A stretch of DNA of 6,166 nt, taken from the IMG/VR virus record IMGVR_UViG_2675903536_000005. One strand, given 5' to 3'. The translations under genes and the position numbers were made by a program. Of this stretch, positions 602 through 5,417 are shown in pieces (the stretch's first letter is position 1; every line of letters starts with the position of its first letter). The notes beneath the pieces are model-generated. The model was given only the letters and a program-made list of their open reading frames with translations, did not search any database and was not told the origin of the DNA. Origin of the DNA: a virus (taxonomy: Duplodnaviria; Heunggongvirae; Uroviricota; Caudoviricetes).

Positions 602-626
602 AAAAAAACCCGCTCGCGGCGGGTTT
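602..626 (-). terminator. Rho-independent terminator (minus-strand orientation) at the left boundary of the low-GC cargo
   Basis: GC-rich stem cccgc(609-613)/gcggg(619-623), 5-nt loop, extendable by 3 A-T pairs; on the minus strand it is followed by a run of 7 T (complement of A602-A608). On the plus strand only TTT follows, so it is mainly unidirectional. Confidence 0.55.
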
Positions 627-671
627 AAGCTGTGTGGCGAAGTAACCACTCTTAACACGATACAATAGTTT

Positions 672-700
672 TTGCGTACGCGTTAGTGGTTATGTAAACT
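672..700 (+). promoter_or_regulatory. Candidate sigma70 promoter for the cargo operon
   Basis: TTGCGT (672-677), 17-bp spacer, TG-n-TAAACT (693-700, extended -10-like), about 40 bp upstream of the ATG at 740. Sequence inspection only. Confidence 0.25.
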
Positions 701-739
701 TTCTCCATATAAAAACAGCAAAGAAGCGGATATTTTGAA

Positions 740-1768
740 ATGGCTACACTGGACGCATTCAGTAGAGTAATAACTCATCATACTATTACGATCGATACAC
801 AATACCGTACACAGAAAATTGATGATAGCATCAGATCGAACTGTGTTTGCCCGGTACCAACAATGCGTGAACTTGCTTCTAAAATAGTACGTTGTAAAGC
901 AATGATGCACAGTTATGAAAAAGGAGACTTAGTTTTAACTTTACAAGATGTAATATTCTTATCAAACAGAGCCGATAAAAAACCCAGCCATCTTGGTCTT
1001 TTAATTAATGCTGTAGATAAAAATGGAAGCACTACTGTATTAAAAAACATTAATACAGATGTTCGCACCGAAATATCACCAAAACATGAGGAAGGTGAAG
1101 GTTACGAAGTTTCTTCTCATATGATTATTTCTCTAGACGGAAATATGCGAACGTATGACATGAGTTTTATGCCAATACCAGGAGTTTCCACAGCAAAAAT
1201 AAATGGTTTCCTGAATAAAGTTCTCTTTAACGTAGCCAAAGATAATGAAGATATCTTTTCATGTCACACTTTAACAAATGAAGTGTCAAGTTTAACAAAG
1301 AAAAAAATAAAAGTATTATACAAGCCAGTCTTTGATATATCTGGAAAGTTAGATGAAGATTTGTTCAATAAAATAAATAAAGAAGGACTTTCTGATGTCG
1401 TTTTGGTAAAGAATGAATACAGAACTATTAATGCGCCAGATGTTAACGCGGCTATTATTCCTAAAGAAAGTACTTTACGCTTAGTACCAAACCATGGCCC
1501 CAACAATGTCCTTGGATGGATAAAATCTGTCTCAAACTTCTTTAAAGAAGATAAAAATGGAGGTTATGACTTAATAAAAATAAAATTCAAAGAGCCAGAG
1601 ACAGGATTCACAAGACAAGTTGACCTTCAAACTTCAAATGTAAGGCTGGATGGGCTGGAAAAAACATTTATCAAAAAGAGTGTAATAAATGGTTTTTCTT
1701 CGCGCTTAAAGGATTCTTATGATAGTATTAACATGGAGTTTGTGAATAAGATTATCGAGGTCATGTGA
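740..1768 (+). CDS. Cargo gene 1: 342-aa soluble hypothetical protein, candidate sensor/partner of the membrane protein (possible distant RexA-like)
   Basis: Long ORF in a markedly AT-rich block. No transmembrane segment, no signal peptide, no Walker A, no convincing nucleotidyltransferase or nuclease motif seen. Weak SD at the ATG at 740. Tightly linked to gene 2 (stop 1766-1768, next ATG at 1776). Confidence 0.7.
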   Translation: MATLDAFSRVITHHTITIDTQYRTQKIDDSIRSNCVCPVPTMRELASKIVRCKAMMHSYEKGDLVLTLQDVIFLSNRADKKPSHLGLLINAVDKNGSTTVLKNINTDVRTEISPKHEEGEGYEVSSHMIISLDGNMRTYDMSFMPIPGVSTAKINGFLNKVLFNVAKDNEDIFSCHTLTNEVSSLTKKKIKVLYKPVFDISGKLDEDLFNKINKEGLSDVVLVKNEYRTINAPDVNAAIIPKESTLRLVPNHGPNNVLGWIKSVSNFFKEDKNGGYDLIKIKFKEPETGFTRQVDLQTSNVRLDGLEKTFIKKSVINGFSSRLKDSYDSINMEFVNKIIEVM

Positions 1769-1775
1769 GGCTAAT

Positions 1776-2351
1776 ATGATTAGTATATTTTCACATTTAT
1801 TTAGACCGTTTGGTTACCTTTTCATTAAGGGAATTAGTGGTAAGTGCGCATACGATTTTTATGCACCTGCCGGGCTTGCTGTGATTTCTTTTTTTTACTT
1901 TTATTTATTTAAAATACCTACATCAGACCTACTAAAAGATGGCGGCTTTATTAAGTCTATATCTGGATTTGTATCAAATCTGCCAGGTTTTTATATAGCA
2001 GCTCTTGCAGCAATAGCCACTTTCAACAGAGAACAAATTGACTACCCTCTGATAGGAACTAATGGCACTCCTTTTATTAAAATTACACGAACAAAAGAAA
2101 ATGGTAGAATTGTTGACACTCAAGAGAAACTTACCAGAAGATTATTTCTGTGCATGTTATTTTCATTTTTAACTGCCCTCAGCATATGCATAGTGATTTT
2201 CAACGCTTTTATCACACCACTAATAAACATACTGAATAATGATATAGCAAACTGGTGCTATATCATTATCTTTTTATTCCTTACATGGCAAATGCTTGTT
2301 TCAACATTTTTTGGACTATACTATCTTGGTGATAGGATTCACATTAATTAA
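1776..2351 (+). CDS. Cargo gene 2: 191-aa integral membrane protein with four predicted TM helices (RexB-like topology), candidate effector/channel
   Basis: SD GAGG at 1767-1770 overlapping the gene 1 stop, 5 nt before ATG 1776. Hydrophobic segments YAPAGLAVISFFYFYLF, FVSNLPGFYIAALAAIATF, LFLCMLFSFLTALSICIVIFNAFI and WCYIIIFLFLTWQMLVSTFFGLYYL, with a charged loop between TM2 and TM3. Local pattern (LFxxIP...DG...IAALAAIATF) resembles lambda RexB (IAILIAALTF) from memory. Confidence 0.75.
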   Translation: MISIFSHLFRPFGYLFIKGISGKCAYDFYAPAGLAVISFFYFYLFKIPTSDLLKDGGFIKSISGFVSNLPGFYIAALAAIATFNREQIDYPLIGTNGTPFIKITRTKENGRIVDTQEKLTRRLFLCMLFSFLTALSICIVIFNAFITPLINILNNDIANWCYIIIFLFLTWQMLVSTFFGLYYLGDRIHIN

Positions 2352-2706
2352 CTACCATAATGGGGTTTATAGTTATTATTACACCGCTGATAAACCCCAT
2401 GGCAGTCTGCAATTCCTTCCTAATTGTGCCATCTGAACATCTTCTCTTCTTGGCAATAGTGCGTAATGAGATACCAATAACAAAGTGAGCTATGATCAGC
2501 TCATATTCCTCTGGTTTATACTTTCGCAACCGAGCCACACAACCGTCTATCATGATGCCTTCATCATCATCACACTGGAGACATGACTTTTTACCGTGTG
2601 GTAAAAGTCCCTTGAAACCAGCCGCTATCGGCTGCCAGTCCACACCACTATTTTCTGCTGCAGCCCATGCTCCCCAGCGGTCCAATACTTCATACATATC
2701 ACGCAT
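2344..2706 (-). CDS. Q: Late-gene antitermination protein Q (QuuD/phage-82-type short Q family)
   Basis: Translation from ATG 2706 (SD GGAG 7 nt upstream): MRDMYEVLDRWGAWAAAENSGVDWQPIAAGFKGL...CLQCDDDEGIMIDGCVARLRKY...CSDGTIRKELQTAMGFISGV...MVVN. The pattern matches the DLP12 QuuD-type Q protein as recalled (RWGAWAA, IAAGFKGL, CxDDxG, GCxARL, CSDG). The track ORF starts 5 codons earlier at TTG. Confidence 0.85.
   Translation of the reverse strand: MRDMYEVLDRWGAWAAAENSGVDWQPIAAGFKGLLPHGKKSCLQCDDDEGIMIDGCVARLRKYKPEEYELIIAHFVIGISLRTIAKKRRCSDGTIRKELQTAMGFISGVIITINPIMVVN
2360..2400. repeat. Perfect 11-bp inverted repeat with 19-nt spacer at the Q/cargo junction
   Basis: ATGGGGTTTAT (2360-2370) and ATAAACCCCAT (2390-2400) are exact reverse complements; it lies within the last codons of Q, immediately next to the convergent 3' end of cargo gene 2. 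Confidence 0.9.
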
Positions 2707-2723
2707 CAACTTTCTCCACAAAA

Positions 2724-3713
2724 TCAGGACAGCACACCAATCGCCAGCGCGCGATCGATAAAACGAAATATCAGCTCCAGTTGGGAACCATACTTCTCTT
2801 CAAATGCCACGGTATCCGCATGCAGTTCGTCATGGTGTTTTCTGCACAAAGGCAACACAAAAAGGTCATGCGCTTTAGTACCCATTCCACCCTGACCATG
2901 GCCAATCAGGTGATGCGGATCGTCGGCTGGCTTACCACAACATGCACACGGCTGCGTCTTAACCCAGCGCGTGTACTTTTCATTAACCCAGCGACGACGT
3001 TTGGGGCGTAACATAAAAGACTCCGGCGACTCCGGATCCACTTTCAGCGCCAGCACCTTTTTCGCTTTATCCTGGATAATGCTGGTGGCAGGAACCGAAG
3101 GCACAAGGTCACTCTCCCGGGTGACAGACGGCAAAACAGGCTTCGGTAATCTCAGGGCCTTACGGGCTGCACTTTCCGGTAAGGCATCCGCCAGGTCATT
3201 ACGAACCAGCCACCAGCACAGTTCCGGCATTGTCACAACGTGACTGTCATCAAAACCAAGATCACGGCGCACAACAGACAACACCCAGCGGGCACAGTTA
3301 TCCGTTGCCATTGATTCCAGCCGTTCCGTGAACTGGTCACGGAGAAGATTGTCACAGTGCCAGCACAGACGGATTGCGCCCGGAGCGTGTCGCATTGTGG
3401 TCATGTTCTCGCTGTGCCAGTCGGAATGAGGCCACTGGCAGCCTTTTTCACGAAGTAACCAGCTTTCAAGACATTCCACGCCACCAGCACGACGGATCAC
3501 TGCCTCATTGCGGAACACGGCCCGAACGGCAAGATCATCCGCCAGCGGTTGTGATGCCGCCGGAACGGCACCACTGGCGAAAGATGAATAACGTTCCGGC
3601 TCAGGCTCCAGCAGGACACGCCCCTGCATAAACAAGGGCATCAGCTCTGAACCTGGTCTGAACAATACGATCCCCATACGCGGGGCAATTTCAGGGGTCA
3701 GTAGTGCTCTCAC
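2724..3713 (-). CDS. DUF968-like prophage protein with C-terminal HNH-like Cys/His zinc motif (YdfU-like)
   Basis: C-terminus CACCGKPADDPHHLIGHGQGGMGTKAHDLFVLPLCRKHHDELH shows CxxC...HH...PLCxxHH...H, typical of HNH-type/DUF968 proteins found next to Q in lambdoid prophages. Start ambiguous: GTG 3719 (track), GTG 3713 (preferred, SD GAGG 5 nt upstream) or ATG 3677. Confidence 0.7.
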   Translation of the reverse strand: MRALLTPEIAPRMGIVLFRPGSELMPLFMQGRVLLEPEPERYSSFASGAVPAASQPLADDLAVRAVFRNEAVIRRAGGVECLESWLLREKGCQWPHSDWHSENMTTMRHAPGAIRLCWHCDNLLRDQFTERLESMATDNCARWVLSVVRRDLGFDDSHVVTMPELCWWLVRNDLADALPESAARKALRLPKPVLPSVTRESDLVPSVPATSIIQDKAKKVLALKVDPESPESFMLRPKRRRWVNEKYTRWVKTQPCACCGKPADDPHHLIGHGQGGMGTKAHDLFVLPLCRKHHDELHADTVAFEEKYGSQLELIFRFIDRALAIGVLS

Positions 3714-3720
3714 GGTCACC

Positions 3721-4536
3721 TCAATGAACGGTATCGAGCAGCTTTAACAGCTCAGGGAATCGGGATTCGAAGAAATGCGGCTGCGTCTCGCGCGGATTTG
3801 CAGGACTGGTGATGTTCTTGCCGAACATGCAGCCTTTCGCGGTCAGCGACCAGAATTTTTTGATGTTGTTAATCGCGGTACGACTGTATCGTTCGCGTTG
3901 TTCAACGATCCCCAGCTTCGCCATCTGGTGATATGCCTGATTAGCCGTCAGGCGGATACCATACTGCTTCAGCAGTGCACTCAGCGACAGCGTAGGGCGG
4001 CTTGAACCATCTGGCGCATCAGCAGGTGCATCAATGGCATAGATCGGCATAAGTTCAGGAAGACCAGCTACCTTTGATAATTTCTGGTATGCACCAAGTT
4101 TCGAGGAGTTTGACAGATTTAGAGTCTTTGCTGCTGATTCAAGCAGAATGACCCCGGATTTAATTTTGTCGGATGTGGTTTCTTCTGGTGATGAATTATG
4201 AAGCGCATCAAAAGTACGTATCACTTTTAAGCTGAATGCCGGGCTGATCCACATTGCATATGCATAGACCAGCTCTTTACAGACATACGTCCCACCATTG
4301 CGCCCCTGAATGGTGATGACAGGAATACTACGGGAATCTCCCGTAGTTTCTTCTTCCAATAATTCCACAAGAGCCTTCGTTTCAGGACGACGCATAAACT
4401 CGTGAACTTCCAGCGAACGGGAGGAGCGATTCTCACCAGCGGCAAGAAGAGCAGCTTTCTGAAGGTCGTTAAGACAGTAGTTAGATTCGAAGTACTGGCG
4501 CACAGAAACGCCATCAATTACAAGCAACTGATTCAT
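3721..4536 (-). CDS. KilA-N domain protein with KilAC-like C-terminal domain (putative phage antirepressor)
   Basis: ATG 4536 with SD GGAG 6 nt upstream (track ORF starts 4 codons earlier at GTG). N-terminal region has the KilA-N signature (ITIQGRNGGTYVCKELVYAYAMWISPAFSLKVIRTFDAL); C-terminal part (LSALLKQYGIRLT...KKFWSLTAKG) resembles Ant/KilAC C-domains by recall. Confidence 0.75.
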   Translation of the reverse strand: MNQLLVIDGVSVRQYFESNYCLNDLQKAALLAAGENRSSRSLEVHEFMRRPETKALVELLEEETTGDSRSIPVITIQGRNGGTYVCKELVYAYAMWISPAFSLKVIRTFDALHNSSPEETTSDKIKSGVILLESAAKTLNLSNSSKLGAYQKLSKVAGLPELMPIYAIDAPADAPDGSSRPTLSLSALLKQYGIRLTANQAYHQMAKLGIVEQRERYSRTAINNIKKFWSLTAKGCMFGKNITSPANPRETQPHFFESRFPELLKLLDTVH

Positions 4537-4698: not shown

Positions 4699-5094
4699 TT
4701 ACCGAGTTGCTAATTTGCAACTCGCTTTTTCGTACTTACTGATAGTGATCTCGACCTTCCCCTCCGGGATAACCGGTCCCCACTCCACCAGCATTCTTTT
4801 CACCTGACTGTCGTCTTCCCACACACCCGCGTGGGTCAGGGCGTCAAACAGCGCCTTGTTATAGTTGTCCAGATCACGGATCCGGTTATCCGGAGGAAAC
4901 AACACGATCTCCACTGAAGCAGGTGCCGACGTTGGTTTTGGCAGACGACGTAACTGCTCAACTATTGCTGCACACGCCGCGCTCTGGAATTTTCGCCCCG
5001 CCGCGCTTATCAGGCTCTTACCAGCAAACGCCCCTTTGTTGGGGTGTCGCCAGTACGTGTTCACGCTGGGCGGAAAAGGCAGGATCAGCTTCAT
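4699..5094 (-). CDS. rusA: RusA-family Holliday junction resolvase (crossover junction endodeoxyribonuclease)
   Basis: 131-aa product aligns by eye to E. coli RusA: PFPPSVNTYWRH (RusA LPWPPSNNRYYRH), RDLDNYNKALFDALTHAGVWEDDSQV (RusA [26 protein letters not shown]). Start ATG overlaps the upstream stop (ATGA). About 7 residues longer at the C-terminus than canonical RusA. Confidence 0.9.
   Translation of the reverse strand: MKLILPFPPSVNTYWRHPNKGAFAGKSLISAAGRKFQSAACAAIVEQLRRLPKPTSAPASVEIVLFPPDNRIRDLDNYNKALFDALTHAGVWEDDSQVKRMLVEWGPVIPEGKVEITISKYEKASCKLATR
4703..4730 (+). terminator. Terminator-like hairpin plus T5 in plus-strand orientation, embedded in the 3' end of rusA
   Basis: 8-bp stem cgagttgc(4703-4710)/gcaactcg(4717-4724), 6-nt loop, followed on the plus strand by cTTTTTcg (4725-4732). 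It overlaps the last 8 codons of the minus-strand rusA ORF. No plus-strand gene is evident, so function is uncertain. Confidence 0.3.
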
Positions 5095-5417
5095 ACTTTC
5101 AGGCCTCTCTCATGTAACCAATGGGCTGCACGCAGCCTGGCGTTTTCCTCACCGGCAAGCAGTGAGCGGATAATCCCGACCGCCTCGCTGTCGTCGTCCT
5201 TCACCACGGTATGAAGCGTGATCCCCCGGGCCACACCACGCTTTATCGTGATGACGCCTTTTTTCTCCAGTGCGCGAAGATGCTCCACCGCTGCATTCAC
5301 TGAACGGTATCCCAGCATGGTTGCCACCTCCTGATTGGTTGGCGGGAAGCCACGTTCTTTCTGATAAGAAATCAGCATATCCAGCACCTGCTGCTGGCAT
5401 TGAGTTAACGTCGTCAT
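5091..5417 (-). CDS. LexA N-terminal DNA-binding-domain-like protein (108 aa), lacking the S24 peptidase domain
   Basis: QQQVLDMLISYQKERGFPPTNQEVATMLGYRSVNAAVEHLRALEKKGVITIKRGVARGITL parallels LexA residues about 5-70 ([62 protein letters not shown]), including the recognition helix S-x-NAA-x-EHL. The ORF ends after 108 aa with no Ser/Lys protease domain. ATGA start/stop overlaps on both sides. Confidence 0.8.
   Translation of the reverse strand: MTTLTQCQQQVLDMLISYQKERGFPPTNQEVATMLGYRSVNAAVEHLRALEKKGVITIKRGVARGITLHTVVKDDDSEAVGIIRSLLAGEENARLRAAHWLHERGLKV

Follow-up and report, generated by a model that had tools for sequence, protein, structure and literature searches.

A low-GC gene pair beside the antiterminator gene Q

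The 6,166-nucleotide stretch of DNA analysed here over its whole length (the window; IMG/VR virus record IMGVR_UViG_2675903536_000005) belongs to a lambdoid prophage of E. coli, of which it covers the part next to Q, as identified by gene calls and Pfam matches. Our subject is a cassette of two plus-strand genes that meets the antiterminator gene Q tail-to-tail, is assigned by profile matches to the PADLOC candidate family PDC-M53 and may serve in phage defence (Table 1). Gene 1 encodes a soluble protein and gene 2 a smaller protein with four predicted transmembrane (TM) helices. The two are separated by a spacer of 7 nt on the same strand, and the Shine-Dalgarno sequence of gene 2 lies over the stop codon of gene 1, just as an earlier note on this DNA, made by inspection of the letters, had described.

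Table 1. Positions of the cassette, its control elements and its borders in the window
Feature	Position	Strand	Basis and remarks
Left anchor, conserved backbone block of about 87 bp	603..689		7-locus alignment; upstream of every cassette type compared
Intrinsic terminator	606..626	minus (late-gene strand)	8-bp stem with 5 GC pairs, then TTTTTTT; kept in all compared loci
Candidate sigma-70 promoter of the cassette	672..700	plus	TTGCGT, 17 nt, TAAACT
Exchanged low-GC segment	690..2385 (about)		Homology break points in multi-locus alignments and GC; cassette and the ~13 final codons of Q
Gene 1, PDC-M53A family, 342-aa soluble protein	740..1768	plus	Open reading frame
Shine-Dalgarno GAGG of gene 2	1767..1770	plus	Overlaps the TGA of gene 1 (1766-1768); ATG at 1776
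Gene 2, PDC-M53B family, 191-aa inner-membrane protein (predicted)	1776..2351	plus	Open reading frame
AT-rich inverted repeat, 14-bp stem	2236..2269		Within the 3' coding part of gene 2; terminator-like flag on both strands
Antiterminator Q	2344..2721	minus	Pfam PF06530 (8e-44), phrog_79; right anchor of the slot

The same note had reported a block of about 32% guanine plus cytosine (GC) at 630-2400, set in a backbone of about 55%. The block is real, with a GC content of 33.4% over 690-2343 (33.7% over 630-2400, as first reported) against 48.6% in the left flank and 51.5% in the right, where every 1654-bp window reaches at least 50.2%; the backbone, however, is close to 50% overall and attains 55-58% only locally. 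The borders also had to be moved, to ~690 and ~2385, since comparison with sibling prophages places 630-689 in the conserved phage backbone, outside the cargo. Codon usage follows the same pattern, GC at third codon positions being 27% in both cassette genes and 43-63% in seven flanking genes. The proposed convergent insertion at the 3' end of Q is correct, and the stop codons of Q and gene 2 overlap by 8 nt. Both this composition and the rarity of the cassette, which is complete in 15 of 5426 complete E. coli genomes, support horizontal acquisition of the low-GC pair; 657 genomes match part of the 630-2400 query, mostly at its backbone ends only. A search of the window for tRNA genes found none.

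The 342-residue start of gene 1 is backed by an N-terminus that is conserved across 27 homologues; a shorter start is annotated in one RefSeq record. The product has no hydrophobic segment, in agreement with the soluble protein that had been proposed, and matches no Pfam or NCBIfam family. Its conserved polar residues comprise R9, D70, N90, D93, R109, E120, S125, H127 and D234, together with G121, and their conservation suggests a specific pocket, beyond non-specific DNA binding.

Hydropathy analysis of the gene 2 product reveals peaks at approximately residues 29-45, 65-81, 121-153 and 157-181, the first two weaker, and an AlphaFold model (predicted local distance difference test, pLDDT, 85) has a long helix at each of them, so that the earlier count of four TM segments in 191 residues is upheld. 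Between helices 2 and 3 lies a basic loop of ~40 residues with a beta-hairpin, and helix 2 holds the invariant motif LPGFxxAALAA. No Pfam or NCBIfam family and no holin family matches the protein, the sole Pfam signal being a sub-threshold one to DUF2721 (E 0.07). A version of the inverted repeat in the 3' part of gene 2 is found, with altered flanks, in the Enterobacter soli homologue, and the repeat is absent from Shigella phage SfII and Salmonella.

Family assignment, pairing and distribution

Both proteins match PADLOC profiles of PDC-M53 (PDC stands for phage defence candidate) along nearly their entire length: gene 1 aligns with PDC-M53A over residues 8-340 of 342 (E 7.8e-32) and gene 2 with PDC-M53B over residues 4-190 of 191 (E 1.7e-54). 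PDC-M53A is also matched by all 69 of 69 diverse gene 1 relatives, and A and B are neighbours on one strand. By these profile matches the module belongs to PDC-M53, a bioinformatic candidate family, from which it differs neither in the two full-length proteins nor in the A-then-B order.

Gene 1 has also been flagged by DefensePredictor (Science 2026, PMC13092281). The identical RefSeq protein, WP_001433853.1, is listed among the predictions for 3,000 E. coli genomes, in the 'uncharacterised' class, with a log-odds score of 5.75 (cutoff 4) and an HHblits annotation that points to a DefenseFinder-labelled RexA protein (probability 88.9, 37% coverage); it lies outside the 94 units tested in that study (PMC13092281). 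The suggestion of the earlier note that the cassette acts in defence is supported, as a prediction, by the PDC-M53 matches, by this score and by the occurrence of the system DS-1 in the same prophage slot (see below). Its option of a novel module falls away: the gene family is already known to two public resources as a candidate, being catalogued by PADLOC and flagged by DefensePredictor, and is not a discovery of an unknown family.

Other resources add little. RefSeq labels both proteins hypothetical, PHROGs places both in function-unknown families (gene 2 in phrog_8257), and searches of Pfam, NCBIfam and PDB sequences with both proteins and with family profiles returned nothing usable. We found no papers naming either protein and no published phenotype, mechanism or structure for PDC-M53; the one paper found that mentions the family gives its name in a list.

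The family is large and the pairing of its two members strict. An exhaustive profile search gave 308 clusters of gene 1 at 50% identity, and the gene 2 search returned 609 relatives. When the scan was carried out at the level of species, with one genome for each, 80 loci were obtained from alpha-, beta- and gamma-proteobacteria and from Nitrospira, Desulfovibrionaceae and Victivallales bins. Gene 1 stands directly upstream of gene 2 on the same strand at 74 of these 80 loci, or at 76 of the 78 informative ones if two loci with a gene 1 fragment or a contig end are added to the 74 and two further, uninformative loci are set aside. The 139 immediate neighbours are spread over 131 Pfam families and include no third conserved gene, which makes the module autonomous. 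Purifying selection on both genes is strong, with ratios of nonsynonymous to synonymous substitution rates (dN/dS) of 0.087 (gene 1) and 0.073 (gene 2); these values come from the comparison of SfII with Salmonella, synonymous sites being saturated in the others.

Gene 2 without gene 1 was seen at two loci only. In a Marinobacterium bin (3712-6537) the gene 2 relative closes a different operon, with products of 287, 87, 140 and 211 residues, two of which are hydrophobic, and in Pinirhizobacter (5926-6537) it stands alone. Other modules may now and then take up the membrane partner.

Shigella phage SfII is the only carrier among 50,697 phage records (orf50/orf49, 57.6% identity). A complete-looking prophage of E. 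coli 04-00955 has the cassette between Q and a lambda-type holin gene, and both SfII and Salmonella Newport prophages carry diverged copies of the pair in this Q-holin slot, which bears out the moron position assigned to it before. Elsewhere the surroundings vary: in a P2-like Halomonas prophage the pair adjoins the portal gene, a methylase gene and an Eco29kI restriction system, in a PM2-like Vibrio prophage it lies at the end of the element, and in Shewanella it is found in a small chromosomal islet. Restriction-modification genes of types I, IIG and III and components of MADS and SoFic are among the immediate neighbours across species, as are phage repressor, Q, portal, integrase and resolvase genes, and at most loci the pair is far from any lysis genes. 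We also note a 2.2-kb contig in an Erysipelotrichaceae metagenome-assembled genome (JBJFHC010000248.1) that carries a full-length gene 1, a gene 2 whose product is 100% identical to that of the window, and then the Q gene; most likely it represents contamination of the bin by an E. coli prophage.

An exchange slot with its own promoter-like site

To define the borders of the slot, seven loci were aligned: the window, SfII, Stx2a_1447 (Stx, Shiga toxin), the DS-1 locus, the O104:H4 locus, E. coli 04-00955 and Salmonella Newport. The left anchor is a block that is invariant or near-invariant in all of them and includes the invariant TTTTTGCGTACGCGTTA; homology ends after ~689, and SfII and Stx2a phages show a 94% match over 630-697. 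The right anchor is the core of Q (the Q equivalent is annotated in RefSeq as 2344-2706), where homology resumes near 2385.

The candidate promoter spans the left border. Its TTGCGT is invariant, and in all six distinct loci a TAnnnT hexamer (TAAACT, TAAGAT, TATATT, TAGAAT, TAAACT and TAGTAT) follows exactly 17 nt on, pointing into the cassette, in surroundings that are specific to each cassette. A generic promoter scan missed the site because its -35 hexamer matches at 3/6 positions only. This conservation leads us to infer that the backbone supplies the promoter, and the slot appears to provide one to any two-gene cassette that occupies it. On the minus strand of the conserved block, neither a scan nor inspection by eye revealed a convincing sigma-70 site for pR'. 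The terminator within the block is a candidate of the tR' type, which would be met by transcription leaving Q and running antisense across the cassette. It precedes a small conserved open reading frame at 282-515 (phrog_331, winged-helix-like). A match to isrK, the Gifsy-1 small RNA in Rfam, was rejected along with the other Rfam matches as sub-threshold (20 bits, threshold 50) and driven by the terminator hairpin.

Four unrelated pairs occupy the slot in sibling prophages that share the nin-Q backbone, namely PDC-M53, DS-1, the O104:H4 pair and the Stx2a pair, and in each a soluble protein is followed by a protein with hydrophobic segments. The DS-1 occupant consists of a YejK/NA37 protein and its partner (NCBIfam NF053868 and NF053869), under the same RefSeq accessions as the proteins that DefensePredictor validated experimentally. 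DS-1 resembles the window pair in slot, orientation and promoter block and in combining a DNA-associated soluble protein with a partner that has a hydrophobic segment, whereas its proteins, of 391 and 404 aa, are larger and have no sequence relationship to those of the window. The O104:H4 cassette encodes proteins of 308 and 182 aa (O104:H4 locus 2248-3709), with no match in PADLOC, Pfam or NCBIfam, and that of the Stx2a phage proteins of 343 and 179 aa, upstream of methylase-tRNA-stx2 (Stx2a_1447 locus 2605-4168); the small partner in both has 3-4 hydrophobic segments. By their position these two pairs are further defence candidates in Stx phages of outbreak lineages. Kinship of the gene 1 family with DS-1A, with orf24 of Stx2a_1447 or with the 308-residue O104 protein was considered and discarded, as hhalign shows them to be unrelated.

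A literature search found no paper that describes this slot as a defence hot spot. An exchangeable slot on the Q side of Stx-type and SfII-type lambdoid prophages is of interest in having one proven defence occupant, DS-1, and at least two more that are uncharacterised, those of O104:H4 and Stx2a.

Comparison with RexAB and proposed function

The predicted structure of gene 1 has the two-domain fold that RexA has in common with RdgC, IML3 and CHL4. In the structure comparison E. coli RdgC ranks first (score 8.1) and lambda RexA second (7.4, over 148 residues), a slightly better score for RdgC; CHL4 follows at rank 4 (6.5), CENP-N at ranks 5, 6 and 8 (6.4 to 6.0), IML3 at rank 11 (5.4) and CENP-L at rank 42 (4.7). 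When Foldseek was run against viral models, four uncharacterised phage proteins were found and next a phage RdgC. We conclude that gene 1 has a predicted RexA/RdgC fold. Membership in RdgC itself was rejected, since none of the 69 relatives matches Pfam PF04381; no Pfam family is common to more than one relative at E up to 0.1. RdgC, unlike gene 1, acts alone as a housekeeping protein and has no partner in the membrane.

Lambda Rex, the earliest abortive-infection system to be described, excludes T4 rII mutants with depolarisation of the membrane, and its mechanism is still unresolved. The order of a soluble protein gene and then a 4-TM partner gene is the same in the window as in lambda RexAB, the two genes are coupled, gene 1 has the predicted fold of RexA, and the predicted four-helix layout of gene 2 resembles that of RexB; expression in the lysogen would be expected from the orientation and from the promoter-like site. 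The two systems also differ. Gene 1 is longer than RexA by 63 aa and gene 2 longer than RexB by 47 aa, with an N-terminal extension and a hairpin insert. RexAB lies beside cI, whereas the cassette has Q on one side and the late leader or holin on the other, ~6 kb from the repressor and outside the immunity region, with a candidate promoter of its own, and the module is widespread in non-phage contexts.

The candidate calls, the fold of gene 1, the strict pairing, the purifying selection, the defence-rich context and the layout of gene 2 together argue for a Rex-like module. Our best explanation, to which we would assign an even chance, is that the cassette is a self-contained, acquired two-gene anti-phage moron of PDC-M53, placed between Q and the late leader, and that it most likely works like RexAB; its predicted function, by analogy and from the family matches, is abortive infection or exclusion. 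In a lysogen, the cassette's promoter at ~672-700 would drive transcription of the pair against the direction of the phage late genes, and the sequence arrangement indicates that both proteins would be made together by translational coupling. The product of gene 1, cytoplasmic and with a predicted RdgC/RexA fold, would by analogy be a dimeric DNA-binding sensor of the DNA of an infecting phage or of a DNA-protein intermediate. Once triggered, it would activate gene 2, a four-helix inner-membrane protein whose basic hairpin loop would face the cytoplasm, and gene 2 would dissipate the membrane potential and so abort the infection. During lytic growth of the prophage itself, antisense transcription through Q would damp expression of the cassette, as far as the terminator at 626-606. 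The terminator scan found no plus-strand terminator after gene 2, and transcripts of the cassette should therefore run antisense into Q.

Several observations weigh against this explanation. Neither Pfam PF15969 nor the PADLOC RexA model matches gene 1 (PADLOC at E up to 1), and the PADLOC RexB model does not match gene 2; none of these three models matches any of the 69 gene 1 relatives (E up to 0.1). In control runs the same models recognise the lambda proteins, those of PADLOC scoring RexA at 9e-110 and RexB at 8.6e-61. Profile-profile comparison by hhalign, for which the targets were a single RexA and a 25-sequence RexA alignment, and RexB alone and a 14-sequence RexB alignment, was not significant either for the gene 1 family against RexA (probability 1.6%) or for the gene 2 family against RexB (probability 2%). 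A custom RexA profile scored at most 8.6 bits on the gene 1 family, collinear and not above the best shuffles. The model of gene 2 had no match with E <0.6 in a Foldseek search of a viral structure library, and we know of no solved RexB structure with which to compare it. The set R9, S125, H127 and D234 is invariant in gene 1, which hints at a ligand-binding or catalytic site of a kind not known from RexA or RdgC. The roles of sensor and effector are assigned to the two partners purely by analogy. Our literature search for a phenotype or validation of PDC-M53 found none, the family being a candidate only, and the predictions of DefensePredictor were validated at 45% overall (PMC13092281).

One sequence comparison leans the other way. 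With a custom RexB profile, a minority of gene 2 relatives score up to 16.1 bits, collinear over TM1-loop-TM2, with the median below zero; 4.3% of the relatives reach 8 bits or more, but only 0.04% of the shuffled sequences and none of the reversed ones do, an enrichment of ~100-fold over shuffles. We regard this RexB-like signal as marginal. As the models and the profile-profile comparisons fail, membership in the RexA sequence family is rejected and that in the RexB family is not supported, and common ancestry of the module with RexAB is plausible but not shown. The earlier idea of a RexAB relative stands as to architecture and predicted fold and is not supported as to sequence families or location in the immunity region.

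The small 4-TM protein and its soluble partner also call to mind Kiwa, in which KwaA, a 4-TM protein of ~190 aa, is paired with the soluble KwaB of ~310-320 aa, and the sizes of the present pair would fit. A Kiwa-like mode of action would reverse the roles given above: gene 2 would sense the perturbation of the envelope at phage attachment or DNA entry and release or activate gene 1, whose RdgC-fold product would bind the incoming DNA and block its replication or recombination, and the cell could survive. DNA binding by RdgC-fold proteins is non-specific, RdgC inhibits RecA (PMC11077077), and gene 1 does score slightly higher against RdgC than against RexA. The gene order, however, is the opposite of that of Kiwa, and no structural match was found. 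We consider this mode of action unlikely. Membership in Kiwa was rejected, the KwaA and KwaB (DUF4868) profiles giving no PADLOC or Pfam match.

Equally improbable, in our estimation, is a module that benefits the prophage and is not primarily concerned with immunity, in which gene 1 would influence RecA, recombination or the choice between lysogeny and lysis, or in which both genes would serve to exclude superinfecting phages at DNA entry or to time lysis. The location between Q and the holin gene in several prophages would suit such a role, as would a read-through transcript antisense to Q, and RexA acts on the lambda bistable switch independently of RexB (PMC11077077). Yet the pair also occurs outside lambdoid phages and recognisable prophages (the Shewanella islet, loci beside restriction systems) and in P2-like and PM2-like elements that lack both Q and lambda-type lysis genes, neither protein matches a holin or lysis family, and the tight coupling of A and B speaks for a membrane partner that is integral to function. 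A phage lysis cassette of holin and antiholin was likewise rejected, on the lack of a holin family match and on the presence of the pair outside lysis operons. An addiction-type (toxin-antitoxin-like) selfish cassette, with a toxic gene 2 restrained by gene 1 and no dedicated anti-phage role, is less probable again: mobility as a two-gene unit, a small membrane protein, strict pairing and a patchy distribution agree with it, but the cassette lies in known defence hot spots and beside restriction systems, two independent defence predictors call the pair, and a module that behaves as a toxin-antitoxin pair may also act by abortive infection.

Starting again from the Rex-like module, we can put forward a wider proposal, which we hold tentatively and with more doubt than belief. 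PDC-M53 would be a broad bacterial counterpart of lambda Rex, extending over alpha-, beta- and gamma-proteobacteria in its 308 clusters, in which an RdgC/RexA-fold protein with a polar pocket (R9, D70, N90, D93, S125, H127 and D234) reads phage DNA or a recombination intermediate and gates a RexB-like four-helix effector. The Q-proximal slot would be a promoter-equipped docking site, in which unrelated defence pairs of a DNA-binder and a membrane protein are swapped by recombination between the Q core and the 87-bp leader block. If PDC-M53 is a true relative or analogue of Rex, comparative and structural studies gain a large, diverse family that has strongly conserved residues as targets for mutation, occurs in many hosts and is carried by a viable phage, SfII. 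New here are the structural link to RexA/RdgC with explicit tests of membership, the breadth and strictness of the A-B pairing together with the SfII carrier, and the promoter-equipped exchange slot next to Q that is also host to the validated DS-1.

Q is the last in a series of minus-strand genes in the window; before it, from right to left, come those for a phage N6-adenine methyltransferase, a LexA-like protein of small size, RusA, a protein with KilA-N and one with DUF968/HNH. The LexA-family protein (5091-5417), encoded in the nin region between the methyltransferase and RusA genes, has 108 residues and consists of the DNA-binding part only.

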